From an uncultured delta proteobacterium (GTDB lineage: Bacteria > Desulfobacterota > BSN033 > UBA1163), in NCBI GenBank assembly GCA_963827685.1, contig CAWHBU010000006.1, positions 416,001 through 480,000 on the forward strand: a stretch of 64,000 nt of DNA, read 5' to 3'. The position numbers and the translations under genes were made by a program. Shown one piece after another: positions 3,303-64,000 of this stretch (position 1 is the stretch's first letter; each line of letters opens with the position of its first letter). The notes beneath the pieces were generated by a model. That model had not been told where the DNA came from and did not search any database. It worked only from the letters and a program-made list of their open reading frames with translations.

Positions 3303-3332
3303 CCTTTAATACTAAATTGAAAAGGAGTAAAT

Positions 3333-3884
3333 ATGAACAAATGTCTTGTTATGGTTGATTTGCAGAATGATTATTTCCCCGGTGGCAAAATGGAACTTGT
3401 CGGCATCGAAGATGCTGCAGAAAATGCTCGGATTCTCTTGACTGAATTCAGAAAGACAAAATTAACTATCGTCCATATACAGCACATTTCCATCCTCCCT
3501 AACGCTTTCTTCTTCTTACCCGACACTGATGGAGTAAAAATAAACGAAAGGGTAACTCCCCAAGAGGGCGAAGCAGTTGTCTCAAAAAACTATCCAAACA
3601 GCTTCCGTGATACATCCCTACTGGAAATCCTAAGAAATGCGCACGTTGACAATCTCGTAATCTGTGGCGCTATGAGCCACATGTGCATAGACGCAACCAC
3701 CCGAGCGGCCTTTGACTTGGGCTTCAATTGCATTGTTGCGAAGGATGCTTGCGCGACAATGGACTTGGTTTTTAAAAACAAAACCATAAAAGCATCAGAG
3801 GTTCATGCGTCCTTTATGGCGGCATTATCGTTTCCTTACGCCAAAGTAGTTTTAACAAGAGATATCGTGAAAAGCAGGGCATAA
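3333..3884 (+). CDS. Cysteine hydrolase / isochorismatase family protein (cassette 3)
   Basis: VDLQNDYF, KNYPNSF, GAMSHMCIDATTRAAFDLG. Confidence 0.9.
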   Translation: MNKCLVMVDLQNDYFPGGKMELVGIEDAAENARILLTEFRKTKLTIVHIQHISILPNAFFFLPDTDGVKINERVTPQEGEAVVSKNYPNSFRDTSLLEILRNAHVDNLVICGAMSHMCIDATTRAAFDLGFNCIVAKDACATMDLVFKNKTIKASEVHASFMAALSFPYAKVVLTRDIVKSRA

Positions 3885-3917
3885 CCATCGAATCTGGCTG
3901 AGCCGCATCGTTAGAGC
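3877..3917 (+). other. attC site 3 (internally deleted)
   Basis: GGGCATAAC overlapping the stop codon ... GGCTGAGCCGCATC-GTTAGAGC; GGGCATAAC is the exact complement of the cassette start GTTATGCCC. Confidence 0.65.
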
Positions 3918-3933
3918 AATTAAGGAGTACTCC

Positions 3934-4563
3934 ATGGGTTTCATTGAAAAATTCGTGAAGCAATGCAGAAAACCTTCAGGCCGGTTTGGTAAATTTGTCG
4001 GCAGAACTATGAATTTAGGCCATAACAGAATTAGGCACTGGGGGCTCAGTCACATTTCTATTAAGCCTGATGCAAACATTCTCGATATTGGCTGTGGTGG
4101 AGGCAAGGCCGTTCAGGAGTTGGCTATGTCTACTCCAAATGGAAAAGTTTATGGAATCGATTATTCCGAAGATATGGTTCAATTAACAAAAAAGGTAAAT
4201 AAGGCACTTATAAAAAAGGGCTTGGTTGAAATAAAGTACGGAACTGTTTCATCTTTGCCGTTTGCAGACAATATGTTCGATCTTGCAACAGCATTTGAAG
4301 CTTACTATTTTTGGCCGAATTTAATTGACGATCTAAAAGAAATTAAGCGCGTTTTAAAACCAGGAGGAACCTTTTTAATTGTCAATGAAGTTTATAAAGA
4401 TGATAAATTCGAAAAACGAAATACGAAATGGGCTAAATTGCTTGATATGCAGCTTCATACTCCAAATGAATATAAGGACTTTCTAACTAAAGCGGGGTAC
4501 CATATCATTGAAATTGATAATATTCCTCAAAAGAATTGGATTGCCGCTATTGCGAAAAAATAA
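3934..4563 (+). CDS. Class I SAM-dependent methyltransferase (cassette 4)
   Basis: ILDIGCGGG, GIDYS, LPFADNMFD, RVLKPGG; AT-rich. Confidence 0.9.
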   Translation: MGFIEKFVKQCRKPSGRFGKFVGRTMNLGHNRIRHWGLSHISIKPDANILDIGCGGGKAVQELAMSTPNGKVYGIDYSEDMVQLTKKVNKALIKKGLVEIKYGTVSSLPFADNMFDLATAFEAYYFWPNLIDDLKEIKRVLKPGGTFLIVNEVYKDDKFEKRNTKWAKLLDMQLHTPNEYKDFLTKAGYHIIEIDNIPQKNWIAAIAKK

Positions 4564-4568
4564 AGGAA

Positions 4569-4846
4569 TTCTAACAATTACTAAGGAGTCCATAATTGAA
4601 AAGACATATTGTTGTAAAAATCTCCCCTAACCCCTCTTTTCCAAAGAGGGGGAATTCCTCCCTTTTGTAAAGGGAGGGTAGGAGGGATTTGGTCTTCAAC
4701 GTCCATACAATTATGGACTGATTAGTAATTCAAGCAGGATTCGGCTAGCACGAGGTGTGCGGTGGATGATTGTAGTGGTTGAACTCTGATTAATTTTTTG
4801 AATGCGAGTGCAGATACCCGCCGAACCGCCTAATTAACCGTCTGAG
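4569..4846 (+). other. attC site 4 (long type, MITE-interrupted, GTT core reads GTC)
   Basis: Removing the MITE gives TTCTAAC-AATTAATTCAAGCAGGATTCGGC ... GCCGAACCGCCTAATTAACC-GTCTGAG. Confidence 0.55.
4581..4725. mobile_element. MITE with TA duplication (IS630/Tc1-like signature)
   Basis: TIRs CTAAGGAGTCCATAATTG and CAATTATGGACTGATTAG; TA on both flanks; internal CCCCTCTTT..AAAGAGGGG and CCTCCCTTT..AAAGGGAGG hairpins. Confidence 0.7.
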
Positions 4847-4922
4847 ATTGTAAATCCCCTCTCCCCATTGGAAATATAATACACAACTGGTCTTTCGGGT
4901 CCAACTGCCGTATAATTTCCTC

Positions 4923-6269
4923 GTGCCGAAAGCCCTCCTGATCCATTCAACTGAAAAATCGCTCGTGGTGGCCGAGCAGCCTGTCTCGGTCTTTCCGGTC
5001 TTGGGGGTGATTACGGTGGCAGCCCTCTTTCCCGAGAGTTGGGAAGTAAATATCGCCGACGAAACCATCGAGGAGATCGACCTCGACCGGAAGGTCGATC
5101 TTGTAGGTATCTCGACGCTCACCCTCAATGCCTGTCGTGCTTATGATCTGGCAGATCATTTTCGCAATAAAGACATACCTGTTTTGATGGGGGGCATGCA
5201 CCCCTCGGCCCTGCCGGAAGAATCTCTCCAGCACGCTGATGCCGTTGTCGTGGGTGAAGCAGAAGGGGTATTCCATCGCGTTCTTTCGGATCTGGGAAAC
5301 GGCAGGATGAAGGGGATCTATAAGAGTGAGGAGCTTCCGGATATTACGAAAGTGCCGCACCCGCGATTTGACCTCCTTCATCCCAAACACCGCCGTTTCA
5401 TCCACTCCGTCCAGGCCACGCGCGGTTGTCCTCATGACTGTGATTTTTGTTCCGTCACTCCCTTCTTTGGACACAGATACCGTCTGAGACCCGTCGAGGA
5501 TGTCATCCGTGACCTCCGGACTTCCCTCGAACAGGCCTCATCGAGAACGGTCTTCTTCGTTGATGACAATATCGGCGGCAATCCCCCTTATGCGAAGGAA
5601 GTCTTTCGAGCCCTCATCCCTCTGAAGATAAAGTGGGGAAGTTTTGCTTCTGTAGCGTTCACAAGGGATCGTGAATTGATCGACCTCGCCGTAAAATCTG
5701 GCTGTATCGAGCTCTTCATCGGCTTTGAATCTATCTCCCAGGAAAATCTGGACACCTCGCACAAATCCTGGGTCCGAGCGGATCGGATGACGGAGTATAT
5801 CAAGATCTTCCACGACCACGGCATCATTGTTGAGGGCGCATTTATCTTCGGCCATGAAAACGATCGAAAAGATATCTTCCGGAAGACAGTGGATTTTGTC
5901 CAAACGGCCGGCATCCAGGTTCCTGTATTCGGTATCCTCACTCCCTACCCGGCTACCCGCCTGAGAGCTAAACTGACCAATGAAGAGAGGCTTTTACCCG
6001 AGTCCTCCAATTGGCGGCTCTACGACGGTTCCCATGTCCTTTTCAGGCCGGCCCATATGTCGCCCGAAGAACTGGAGGAGGGATTCCTCTGGGCCAAGAA
6101 ATATTGTTCGGCACCGCGCTCGGTCTTCAGAAGGATGTTCCGAGCGCCGAGGACTCATTGGCTTACAGCTCTGGGACTCAATTTTTCGATGTATTTCGGC
6201 AGGACAAAACAGATCAGAGCGCGTTGGCCTCGCTCCAAAGGACGATTGGTCCGGCCAGGGACATGGTAG
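4923..6269 (+). CDS. B12-binding radical SAM protein
   Basis: GGMHPS...GEAE cobalamin-binding domain; TRGCPHDCDFC. Confidence 0.9.
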   Translation: MPKALLIHSTEKSLVVAEQPVSVFPVLGVITVAALFPESWEVNIADETIEEIDLDRKVDLVGISTLTLNACRAYDLADHFRNKDIPVLMGGMHPSALPEESLQHADAVVVGEAEGVFHRVLSDLGNGRMKGIYKSEELPDITKVPHPRFDLLHPKHRRFIHSVQATRGCPHDCDFCSVTPFFGHRYRLRPVEDVIRDLRTSLEQASSRTVFFVDDNIGGNPPYAKEVFRALIPLKIKWGSFASVAFTRDRELIDLAVKSGCIELFIGFESISQENLDTSHKSWVRADRMTEYIKIFHDHGIIVEGAFIFGHENDRKDIFRKTVDFVQTAGIQVPVFGILTPYPATRLRAKLTNEERLLPESSNWRLYDGSHVLFRPAHMSPEELEEGFLWAKKYCSAPRSVFRRMFRAPRTHWLTALGLNFSMYFGRTKQIRARWPRSKGRLVRPGTW

Positions 6270-6336
6270 TGCGGGATTCCTCTCCGGATCGAGGAATGCT
6301 GGATGGGGTCACTTGTCTTCAAGCGGAGGTGAATCT

Positions 6337-6723
6337 ATGGCAGTTCGTATCGTGCAACTCGGAAGTCCCCGTAGAAGCGGCGAAGGGCTGCGCATTGGCA
6401 CAGTTCGGCGCCCACCAAGAGGCGTGCCCAAAAACGAGTTTGCATCGCGCAATTACTATGATGTGTGGCTGCCTAACCTCGCGCCCAGCGACCAGCTTCT
6501 CAAGGCCGGACGAGCAGCTAAAGACGAGACCGATTGGCGCTCTTTCATCAAACGCTACCGCTCGGAAATGAGCCGAGCAGAGAACAGCCGGGTTCTTGAT
6601 CTGCTCGCTGCGTTATCGCACCAAGCGAATTTTTCGGTCGGATGTTATTGCAATGACGAGCAGCACTGCCATCGCTCAGTGCTTCGTCAACTCCTCGCCG
6701 AGCGTGGTGCTTCGCTCGCCTGA
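6337..6723 (+). CDS. DUF488 family protein
   Basis: RIGTVRRPPRGV, DVWLPNLAPS, CYCNDEQHCHRS; GGAGGT RBS. Confidence 0.85.
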   Translation: MAVRIVQLGSPRRSGEGLRIGTVRRPPRGVPKNEFASRNYYDVWLPNLAPSDQLLKAGRAAKDETDWRSFIKRYRSEMSRAENSRVLDLLAALSHQANFSVGCYCNDEQHCHRSVLRQLLAERGASLA

Positions 6724-58107: not shown

Positions 58108-58485
58108 TTATTTAAAGATGGGATTTGCTTCCGCTGCCAATTCTTGAGCGATTGAGATCCTTTGATCCTTATCTTCTGGCCACCCGACAATATCTGCATG
58201 CCTTATTGGAGGAGGGTCAGTGGGGGCGACAACTAAAGCCTTTGATAAAATGTTAAAAACCCTTATATCAGCTCGTCCCAATAATGGCTTCCCTCGCATT
58301 CTGGCAACTTCAAGACCAATTTCCCAAATTTCAACGTTAGTAATCCCAGAAATCCTGCAGACCGACGTCCTACCATTATTGTTTGGCATAAAAGCTTGAT
58401 GCTTTATTGTGCGATTTGCCCTAAAATGGTTCTTATCAACTATAAATCTTGATAAATATTCAAACGGATTGATCGCCTCGGGCAT
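58108..58485 (-). CDS. Hypothetical protein, possible ADP-ribosyltransferase/RES-like fold
   Basis: LSRFI..AFMP..TSVCR..RHADIVGWP spacing; third gene of the AT-rich islet. Confidence 0.65.
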   Translation of the reverse strand: MPEAINPFEYLSRFIVDKNHFRANRTIKHQAFMPNNNGRTSVCRISGITNVEIWEIGLEVARMRGKPLLGRADIRVFNILSKALVVAPTDPPPIRHADIVGWPEDKDQRISIAQELAAEANPIFK

Positions 58486-58486
58486 A

Positions 58487-58987
58487 TTATGAATAAAGCC
58501 TATTTAAACCTGTTAATACTATCGCAGGGAGAGAATCAGAAAAATATTCGGTTCCATGGGTTTTGTTTATTCCAAATAATCCAGCATACACAATACTGTT
58601 TTTTCCAGAAACAGTAACCACAAATACGTGTCGATTATCTCTATACCATTCTAGTGATATTTCCCCATCGTTGTCGGGACTAATCTCAGGCAATGGCAAA
58701 TTCAGGTTAATAGGTAAACTTTTGACGAAGCTTTCTGCTTCATGGTACGCATCTTCAGATAGGGGTAGTGCTCCTTCTCCATCCCAGTTCGGGACAGAAT
58801 ATTCTATGAATATCCTGCGAAGGTCCTGAAGGATCTTGTCTTGAGCTCCTAAGGTTTCTGTTTCCACAAATCCTTCCACAATACGATCCATATATCCCTT
58901 TAATTTTCCAGAATCAGCGCTAATTCCTATGGCTGAGAAGTTCGTAATACTACTGCAATCAACACAGGCAATTGCTCTTGTTGTCAT
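58487..58987 (-). CDS. Hypothetical protein (partner of the TIGR04255 gene)
   Basis: PNWDGEGA..P, PDNDGEISLEWY; 4-nt overlap with the upstream gene. Confidence 0.75.
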   Translation of the reverse strand: MTTRAIACVDCSSITNFSAIGISADSGKLKGYMDRIVEGFVETETLGAQDKILQDLRRIFIEYSVPNWDGEGALPLSEDAYHEAESFVKSLPINLNLPLPEISPDNDGEISLEWYRDNRHVFVVTVSGKNSIVYAGLFGINKTHGTEYFSDSLPAIVLTGLNRLYS

Positions 58988-59730
58988 ATATAAATCTCCT
59001 TTAACTTTTCTGTGATAAACCCAAAAAATATTTGGTTCTTAAAATTCCGCATCTTCTCGAGGAGATTCCAAGCTTCTCTTTCCTCAATTCCTGCAGTTCG
59101 TTCTTTATTTACATCAATATCCAATATTACTGGAAGTTTGGGCATTTCTACAGGCATTGCTTCAAGTGCCTGCGTGATTATTGCATTGGCTTCTAATTCT
59201 GGCACATGAACATTCAGCCGGATCAAAAAGCTATGAACTCCCTGAGGCAATCCTTCGGGAAGAACTGGAGGAGCTACAAGATAATCAGCAAAATCTATTA
59301 CTGGCATCGGAATATTCAGGTTGTTTATGTATCGCAGGGCAACCCTGGTGATGGCTTCTGGGAGTACCGCTTCCTTGTACAATAACCATAATCTATTTGC
59401 CTCATTTCTAAATTCTTCCCAACTTAAATACGGAGGGAGTCTGTTATAAGTGAAACCATCAAGTCTTGCTTGGAAGATTTCGTTCTTATTCCTCGAAATG
59501 TAGCGGTAACCAGTTATTCTTAAAGGAACTGATTGTACTAATTCAGAACCAGGCTTTAATGCAAATTGCAATTGAGAGTGTCTTTGCTCTTGCTTCTCCG
59601 GATAACTTTCATTAACCTTCTCATAAACAGAGTCGATTCTTTTAACATCAAAATCACTAGGCAGTTTTACCCTTAAGTCAATAAGGGCCTCTTTAATAGG
59701 AGCTTTTGTTAATTTTGGATACCCTTCCAA
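58984..59730 (-). CDS. TIGR04255 family protein
   Basis: LTKAPIKEALIDLR, PYLSWEEF, TRVALRYIN, VILDID, KNQIF. Confidence 0.85.
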   Translation of the reverse strand: MEGYPKLTKAPIKEALIDLRVKLPSDFDVKRIDSVYEKVNESYPEKQEQRHSQLQFALKPGSELVQSVPLRITGYRYISRNKNEIFQARLDGFTYNRLPPYLSWEEFRNEANRLWLLYKEAVLPEAITRVALRYINNLNIPMPVIDFADYLVAPPVLPEGLPQGVHSFLIRLNVHVPELEANAIITQALEAMPVEMPKLPVILDIDVNKERTAGIEEREAWNLLEKMRNFKNQIFFGFITEKLKEIYI

Positions 59731-60051
59731 ATTTAAACCTTCTTCGATGAGGTAATTTTCTAATATTTCTACTATTTTTCTAAAATCGTGTCAATCCAAT
59801 CGAAATTTTTAGAAAAATCAGTTGGTTAATTTGTTTTGCTCTACCATTGGGAGATTTAGGTTCTAGAACATTCTGAGGTTAAGGCATTTTCCCCGATTTG
59901 CCCCCCTTAAAAAAGGGCCAACCGTTGTCAAGTCGTTTCAGAACCTACGCCCCCTTTCTTGTCGGCATTTCAACTGATCAGTCTGCAAATCATAAATCAG
60001 GATATGGGTCTATTCGGGGTACCCGTGTCAGGAAGCTCATCGTAGCGAGGG

Positions 60052-63563: not shown

Positions 63564-64000
63564 ATGGAAAAGCTAAACTATCAACATCTCTCCAGTGAAG
63601 AGAGAGACAAAATTGCATATCTTCACGCACGAGGTAAAAGCATCTCGGAGATAGCCGAGAGTATCGGGCGAAACAAAGGTTCCATTTCACGAGAACTCAA
63701 GCGTAACCGATCGCCCATCTACAACGTTTACTTGGCCAATAGGGCCCATGAAAGAGCCGTTAAACGAAAACATGAATCCGTCCAACGACAGCGAATACGC
63801 AATCCTTTGATCCGTAGGTATATCATGAAAAAGCTCAAGCTCAAATGGTCTCCCGAACTGATTTCAGGAAGACTTTCTTTAGAATATCCAGACCTTCGTA
63901 TCAGCCATGAGGCCATTTATCAATTCATCTATGATAAATCGATCCCTACGAAGCAGAACCTGGTGCCCTATCTGACTCGGGCTCACAAGCGCCGTAGACT
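63564..64000 (+). mobile_element. IS30-family transposase (truncated by window end)
   Basis: MEKLNYQHLSSEERDKI..GRNKGSISRELKRN..WSPELISGRL..ISHEAIYQFIY; left-end-like GTGCAACA near 63530. Confidence 0.9.

Follow-up and report, generated by a model that had tools for sequence, protein, structure and literature searches.

In this study, we analyzed a three-gene islet (positions 58108-59730, minus strand) of the window, that is the whole stretch of 64,000 nt of DNA from an uncultured delta proteobacterium (contig CAWHBU010000006.1, positions 416,001 to 480,000). Its genes, named here g1, g2 and g3, belong to a module whose last two members form a conserved pair and are predicted to bind each other, whose first member is exchangeable, and whose pair is, by profile similarity, distant kin of PDC-M32, a defence candidate known from computation. 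We tentatively favour the reading of the islet as a self-contained conflict module of three components that was acquired horizontally, would be toxin-antitoxin-like and would probably act in abortive infection or otherwise against phages. An earlier analysis of the letters alone (the sequence-only reading) had proposed a toxin-antitoxin-chaperone-like defence system with g1 as sensor or chaperone, g2 as antitoxin and g3 as an effector of ADP-ribosyltransferase (ART) type. The conserved module, the family of g1, the predicted binding of g2 to g3 and the defence-type context of relatives speak for this proposal, and its ART fold was not established.

The relatives were sampled with a scan for the g3 pattern that kept one genome per species, and the best 80 of the 135 confirmed relatives were analyzed as loci (designated L below). 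According to the record titles, these 80 loci represent about 17 phylum-level groups and, as far as the titles show, include no cultured isolate. A homologue of g2 lies immediately upstream of g3 in 77 of them, and a TIGR04255 gene lies immediately upstream of g2 in 59 (58 separate genes and one fusion). This neighbourhood check agrees with the earlier expectation of a conserved trio. The three loci in which no g2 was found are L004 and L047, where g3 stands at the start of a contig, and L030, which is considered below. The genes that flank the module are mostly unrelated between loci.

The predicted g2-g3 complex reached ipSAE values of 0.90, 0.91 and 0.90, against 0.01 for the best control; the runs have at least 98% of their contacts in common, with a partner pLDDT of 92-93. 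When the complex-prediction tool was calibrated, 116 of 157 solved complexes and 2 of 215 mismatched pairs attained the mark, counts that are only roughly valid here because our own alignments were used. Since we know of no like complex, a prediction that merely reproduces a known structure seems unlikely. On the side of g2, the predicted interface comprises residues 69-74, which form the invariant WDG loop, and residues 101-146, and it involves the sheet; on the side of g3, it comprises residues 16-36, S41, residues 64-66 and the C-terminal helix (105-118). Two other conserved residues of g3, R13 and H96, lie outside the list of confident contacts. The model supports mutual binding of g2 and g3, as would be expected if g2 were the antitoxin or an adaptor. 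As in type II toxin-antitoxin pairs, the two genes are adjacent (1-nt gap in the window; neighbours in 77/80 loci) and their products are predicted to bind.

Across 19 sequences, the invariant residues of g2 are W68, D69, G70, A73, G108 and W114, and several prolines and glycines are also conserved; the motifs quoted from the sequence alone (NWDGEGA and DGEISLEW) are present and coincide with conserved residues. The AlphaFold2 (AF2) model of g2 (mean pLDDT 72; below 50 for residues 1-23 and 36-46) shows helices followed by a five-stranded sheet. Foldseek searches with this model returned no match at E <= 0.001, the weak matches being polo-box-like, and neither g2 nor g3 has any Pfam, NCBIfam or PDB sequence match. 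We propose g2 as a candidate adaptor or antitoxin that would bind g3.

The first gene of the module is variable. In the 18 remaining loci that carry g2, it belongs to a 219-aa family (n = 7), to a 238-aa family (n = 3) or to other types (n = 4), and four loci have none or reach the end of the contig. No kinship of these alternative first genes with TIGR04255 was shown, since hhalign comparisons, made on shallow alignments, gave probabilities of at most 1.4%. The part of g2 that precedes the WDG motif differs accordingly in length: 45-74 residues beside TIGR04255, 91-97 beside the 219-aa family, 138-145 beside the 238-aa family and only 15 in L032. The length of this N-terminal tail, which is the low-confidence part of the AF2 model, tracks the type of the first gene. 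In L005, TIGR04255 and g2 are fused in frame in a protein of 414 aa, although no such longer, fused g2 came up in a word-index search.

The assignment of g1 is clear: it is a TIGR04255 protein, as had been read from its sequence, with a full-length NCBIfam match (E 4.4e-38; 131.5 bits for a cut-off of 30; residues 6-245 on positions 1-249 of 252), and all its nearest ESM Atlas clusters bear this name. Neither g1 nor 56 relatives have a Pfam match, SecB included, and no PDB sequence relative was found for g1 alone or for the 56-member set. Eight residues are invariant in these 56 sequences (P11, E14, Y101, R133, N136, D204, K231 and F235). The name TIGR04255 and its variants are not mentioned in the searched full texts (a search of texts exclusive of supplements). 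TIGR04255 genes also occur on three plasmids, where the cassettes that follow them bear no relation to g2 and g3. The cassette encodes two hypothetical proteins in Crinalium and a single one in Thermus; on the Vibrio parahaemolyticus plasmid CP063527.1 (L083, 158-2105), a 179-aa hypothetical protein comes first and then a zeta-toxin/AAA_33 protein. Such occurrences suggest that TIGR04255 may serve a variety of effector cassettes as a generic partner. Taken together, the swaps of the first gene, the tracking by the g2 tail and the presence of TIGR04255 in other cassettes therefore point to an exchangeable first component, an adaptor with a partner-specific tail and a small conserved protein. 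The Vibrio locus has the three-gene layout of the islet, with a known type of toxin in third position.

Two further arrangements were observed among the relatives. One metagenome-assembled genome (MAG) of Desulfobacterales carries two variants of the module, L041 (JACNIU010000266.1) and L051 (JACNIU010000105.1): a TIGR04255 variant with brxF-brxC less than 1 kb downstream of it, and another in which an unrelated 239-aa first gene accompanies a long-tailed g2. In L052, from a MAG of Opitutales, the module is split by a 494-aa open reading frame (ORF; 4015-5499, minus strand) located between g2 (3322-3813) and g3 (5974-6372), which we take to resemble a DDE transposase.

When PADLOC was applied to the proteins of the window, residues 67-141 of g2 matched weakly positions 271-343 of the 375 of PDC-M32A (E 1.6e-6), and the match is confined to these positions instead of extending over the full length of the profile. 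This C-terminal part of PDC-M32A is also matched by 18 of 19 g2 homologues (best E 6.9e-7), and none of 14 sampled g1 relatives matches PDC-M32A at E <= 0.01. The second profile, PDC-M32B, is matched over nearly its whole length (positions 18-114 of 123) by g3 in 13 of the 80 loci (E 5e-5 to 9e-3). It is also matched by 4 of 31 g3 homologues (E 0.009-0.023). One locus of Pyrinomonadaceae (L032, 4245-6363) is a bridge, at the level of sequence profiles, between the family of the window and PDC-M32: upstream of the core, a 309-aa ORF corresponds to positions 1-252 of PDC-M32A (E 6e-53), takes the place of TIGR04255 as first gene and is followed by a 137-aa ORF, a tail-less g2 of 112 aa and g3. 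By our own reading, the inserted 137-aa ORF is PIN-like and a 1304-aa ORF located further upstream encodes a type IIG restriction-modification enzyme. Nothing conserved was seen downstream of g3 in this locus.

These matches make PDC-M32 a distant relative of the g2-g3 pair. Both have the same order of a large protein or domain, a WDG domain and a small protein, the g2 domain falling on the A profile, g3 relatives on the B profile and, in L032, the N-terminal domain of A lying upstream of the core. They differ in that the matches of the window are far below the calling level of PADLOC and in that the A protein is split here, its N-terminal domain being replaced by TIGR04255, which has no detectable similarity to it. 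PDC-M32 is a two-gene (A, B) in silico candidate of PADLOC obtained by "guilt-by-embedding", one of 145 PDC candidates inferred from their embedding in loci for BREX, DISARM or type I restriction-modification, and the main text of the preprint that defines them does not discuss it (bioRxiv 10.1101/2024.01.29.577857). Among the indexed papers, a single one names it in its main text, as a PADLOC match in Sinorhizobium prophages (PMC12429752). The sequence-only reading had called the system undescribed. This holds for its function, which is not mentioned in the searched literature, but not for its kinship; the islet is not wholly undescribed, because it is a distant, split variant of an in silico candidate with a different first component.

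The neighbourhood of the relatives was scanned on 150 of 264 listed ORFs, two on each side of the module, in loci L001-L048. At E <= 1e-5, PADLOC matched 29 of these 150 ORFs, in 22 of the 48 loci, which is a raw count without background control. The matches include type I restriction-modification genes (L006, L010, L015 and L034), type IIG enzymes (L008 and L046), BrxF and BrxC (L041), DrmD (L047), PD-Lambda-2 (L043) and a methyltransferase with Vsr (L037). The defence neighbourhood that had been anticipated is thus found in part: relatives often lie beside restriction-modification or BREX genes, whereas the islet of the window lies among housekeeping genes.

Two other types of neighbours recur beside the module: RadC-like JAB genes (six ORFs in five loci, their identity having been scanned in L006 only) and DprA-like genes with PADLOC "PsyrA" matches (five ORFs in five loci). 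The loci concerned are L006, L015, L019 and L034, where these genes are downstream of g3, as well as L008, L024 and L030. In several cases, they accompany type I restriction-modification genes.

The g3 family is large: a word search found 79 homologues, and a library of representatives contains 3163 clusters at 50% identity (E <= 0.001), or 2246 at E <= 1e-10. Among 150 diverse members, S41 is invariant, and at least 90% share R13 as well as H96, the latter followed by A-[DN]. The R...S...H spacing noticed earlier (LSRF/TSV/HADI) thus corresponds to the best-conserved polar residues of the family. In the AF2 model, an alpha/beta protein (pLDDT 93.7), R13, S41 and H96 lie in strands 1 (residues 10-15), 2 (40-44) and 5 (96-100). 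All 30 nearest ESM Atlas clusters lack a Pfam family, DUF6098 (at 0.92) being only a lead, and a profile search of PDB sequences with the g3 family returned nothing relevant. The deposited copy of g3 (P0007) has 93 aa and is 100% identical over 74% of the query. Its annotation seems to start at Met33 and so to cut off the conserved E9 and R13. We prefer the 125-aa start at 58485, because homologues of 125-131 aa keep E9 and R13 upstream of Met33. We propose g3 as a candidate effector enzyme.

The R...S...H spacing of this candidate enzyme had first been likened to ART/RES-like folds. In its sharpest form, which we consider unlikely, g3 would be a minimal enzyme of the ART superfamily in which R13, S41 and H96 replace the R-S-E set and which would use NAD+ for the modification or degradation of a target, as CmdT, DarT or RES toxins do. 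ART triads are defined as R-S-E or H-Y-[EDQ] and, in R-S-E enzymes, the R, the S-T-S motif and the catalytic E lie on strands 1, 2 and 5. The three conserved residues of g3 occupy these same strands in the model, and entries of the ART superfamily recur among its weak Foldseek matches. They include exotoxin A domain III at PDB rank 1, Tpt1 at ranks 6, 11, 13, 19 and 47 (TMq 0.44-0.47; for the best, TMq 0.47, root-mean-square deviation 4.2 over 97 columns and prob 0.54), a chain of the TreTu-TriTu complex, EcPltA and, weakly, at BFVD rank 20, a fragment of a phage DarT (TMq 0.44). However, no match reached E <= 0.001 in either database (best E 0.25 in the PDB and 0.041 in BFVD), the rank-1 exotoxin has a TMq of only 0.17, and proteins of the HIT family rank as high as those of the ART superfamily. 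Furthermore, the Pfam families ART, DarT, Tpt1 and RES match neither g3 nor any of the 150 members (E <= 5), and hhalign gives a probability of 0.18% against KptA of Escherichia coli. The strand-5 position holds a His and not the catalytic Glu, so the set is R-S-H and corresponds to neither R-S-E nor H-Y-[EDQ]. The ART/RES-like fold is therefore not established. If g3 did have the ART fold, the His found where Glu is expected could still mean another chemistry.

Compared with known proteins of this kind, g3 shares with the toxins of DarT-DarG and RES-Xre and with Tpt1/KptA a small alpha/beta build, a few conserved Arg, Ser or His residues and the weak structural resemblances listed above. It differs from them by the lack of any significant structural or sequence match and by its R-S-H set, compared to R-S-E, H-Y-E or R-E-S. 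Its partner g2 is neither a macrodomain nor an Xre protein.

In the window, the three genes are found in the ORF list exactly as first delimited, with a 4-nt overlap (ATGA) at the g1/g2 junction and a 1-nt gap (TAA-T-ATG) at the g2/g3 junction (Table 1). The islet is, as had been noticed, AT-richer than its neighbours: its GC content is 0.394, compared to a mean of 0.480 for the window (standard deviation 0.028 in 1623-nt sliding windows), and the minimum of the whole window, at 58301, lies inside it. Only 0.64% of the sliding windows have an equally low GC content, and every one of them overlaps the islet. By gene, the values are 0.384 (g1), 0.393 (g2) and 0.415 (g3), against 0.45 for the neighbouring CorC-type gene and 0.514 for the OmpA-type gene. 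A second low-GC patch of the window (3333-4563, plus strand, GC about 0.40) contains two ORFs of 183 and 209 aa, which in our own reading resemble an isochorismatase/cysteine-hydrolase and a class I SAM methyltransferase, respectively.

Table 1. Features of the islet and of its upstream region (positions in the window)
Feature	Coordinates	Strand	Description
g1	59730..58984	-	248 aa, TTG start; TIGR04255-family protein
g2	58987..58487	-	166 aa; variable N-terminal tail (~1-46) and WDGxGA-loop/beta-sheet domain
g3	58485..58108	-	125 aa; alpha/beta protein with conserved R13/S41/H96 set
AT-rich upstream region	59731..59900	-	putative promoter region of the module

The flanking genes encode a CorC/CNNM-type CBS protein, an OmpA-family protein and TldD, all of housekeeping type, and the islet itself contains no mobility gene, in agreement with what had been described. 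No tRNA was found between 50000 and 64000. The only mobility-type gene nearby, 3.8 kb from the islet, is an ORF (63564-63998, plus strand) that runs off the end of the window and has an N-terminal helix-turn-helix-like stretch; in our own reading, its product resembles IS30-family transposases. Flanking direct repeats were considered as an insertion scar and rejected, the only pair that spans the islet being 15 nt long with 87% identity.

The module probably has a promoter of its own in an AT-rich leader of 170 nt that precedes g1. This leader includes a TTGACA hexamer (59794-59789), read by eye where the promoter scan reported none, and the Shine-Dalgarno-like stretch GAAGAAGG, also read by eye, precedes the TTG start. 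A perfect 12-nt inverted repeat (59774-59785 and 59807-59818) brackets TTGACA. When the 321-nt spacer was simulated with a first-order Markov model, only 6 of 2000 runs gave a repeat of such length, which makes chance an unlikely origin, but arms of at least 10 nt occur upstream of g1 in only 3 of 53 related loci (in two of these, 0 of 200 simulations gave arms that long). Because the repeat is not conserved in relatives, we make no claim that it is an autoregulatory operator; both a local operator and a product of chance are conceivable.

In the proposed mechanism, the invariant core would be a g2-g3 heterodimer composed of a non-enzymatic WDG-loop/beta-sheet protein, g2, and a small enzyme-like protein, g3. 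By clamping g3 with its beta-sheet and WDG loop, g2 would hold it in check. The first gene, here TIGR04255, would be an exchangeable partner that acts by way of the variable tail at the N-terminus of g2; its product would either sense a trigger or stabilise g2. Once g2 is lost or displaced, g3, then toxic, would act on a substrate rich in phosphate, which could be a nucleotide (for instance NAD+) or a nucleic acid.

Such a scheme recalls the toxin-antitoxin-chaperone (TAC) systems, including CmdTAC, which also consist of three small co-transcribed genes. According to two reports, a generic third protein acts in TAC systems on the tail of the antitoxin (PMC11618068; bioRxiv 10.1101/2024.02.24.581848), and in CmdTAC this third protein, a chaperone, senses a capsid protein, its loss freeing the ART toxin (PMC11618068). 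Similarly, the variable g2 tail changes with the kind of first gene, and one locus has g1 and g2 in a single fused protein. The islet differs by its gene order (third component, adaptor, effector), by a first protein whose sequence matches neither SecB nor any Pfam family, and by an effector that is not recognisable as an ART, HigB or MqsR toxin. The variable tail of g2 is also N-terminal, whereas the chaperone-addiction element of known TAC systems is C-terminal.

Several observations weigh against a conflict module of this kind. In L030, g3 is present with room for g2, yet no g2 is detectable. A tblastn search with g2 and g3 found no relative in 72,556 plasmid and 50,697 phage records. At the profile level, g1 and g3 of the window have no PADLOC match at E <= 1, the PDC-M32B matches of g3 relatives are weak, and PDC-M32 is itself a candidate obtained in silico. 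The neighbour count, made without background control, includes non-defence matches (RtcR, a desaturase and a kinase), and the islet of the window is surrounded by housekeeping genes instead of a defence island. Pfam recognised in none of the three proteins the DNA-binding domain that is usual in type II antitoxins. Finally, because the fold of g3 has no significant match, its enzymatic role is deduced solely from the conserved R, S and H.

Some of these observations fit as well a plain addiction module, that is a post-segregational or selfish toxin-antitoxin pair with an accessory protein carried by mobile DNA and without any role in phage defence. Tight coupling, predicted g2-g3 binding and patchy distribution would be expected equally from such a module, the window offers no defence neighbours, and plasmid TIGR04255 genes adjoin a VapC pair and a zeta-toxin gene. 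However, the carriage by mobile DNA finds no counterpart in the plasmid and phage records searched with g2 and g3, the module of the window is devoid of mobility genes, and its relatives are often adjacent to restriction-modification or BREX genes or embedded among them. We regard addiction alone as a rather improbable explanation. It is quite improbable that g2 and g3 are instead the subunits of an accessory enzyme (for example, for repair or processing of nucleic acids or for nucleotide metabolism) that has TIGR04255 as assembly or regulatory factor and spreads because it is useful in some niches: the conserved R, S and H of g3, its weak Tpt1- and HIT-like structural echoes, the recurrent RadC-like (five loci) and DprA-like (five loci) neighbours and a strong predicted heterodimer, which suits an obligate complex no less than it suits a toxin-antitoxin pair, are in its favour, but the swapping of the first gene and of the cassettes downstream of TIGR04255 (zeta toxin included) is typical of conflict systems, no metabolic neighbour is conserved, and the composition is foreign and the distribution sporadic.

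Returning to the conflict module that we favour, a more far-reaching version of it can be drawn, which we hold to be doubtful. In this version, g3 with its R-S-H set would found a very large and hitherto unrecognised clade of minimal enzymes directed at NAD+ or nucleic acids, possibly an offshoot of the ART fold. These enzymes would be kept in check by a new WDG-loop inhibitor domain and served by a new class of exchangeable sensors of infection, TIGR04255 and several unrelated proteins of about the same size, which would also serve other cassettes, including those with zeta toxins. The whole would constitute a new family of abortive-infection systems found mainly in uncultured environmental bacteria.

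Overall, this work groups three "hypothetical proteins" into a module with defined parts: a core predicted to be a heterodimer, three residues that are candidates for catalysis, a first component that can be exchanged and, in addition, a link to PDC-M32. It also draws attention to the g3 family, which comprises thousands of clusters at 50% identity over many phyla and yet has no Pfam family. As the module is now defined, bench tests of toxicity, rescue, point mutants and phage challenge are directly possible. Should the module prove harmless, a large family that looks like a conflict system would need another explanation. If g3 is truly a new type of enzyme or TIGR04255 a new type of sensor, the module would represent a new branch of bacterial immunity.

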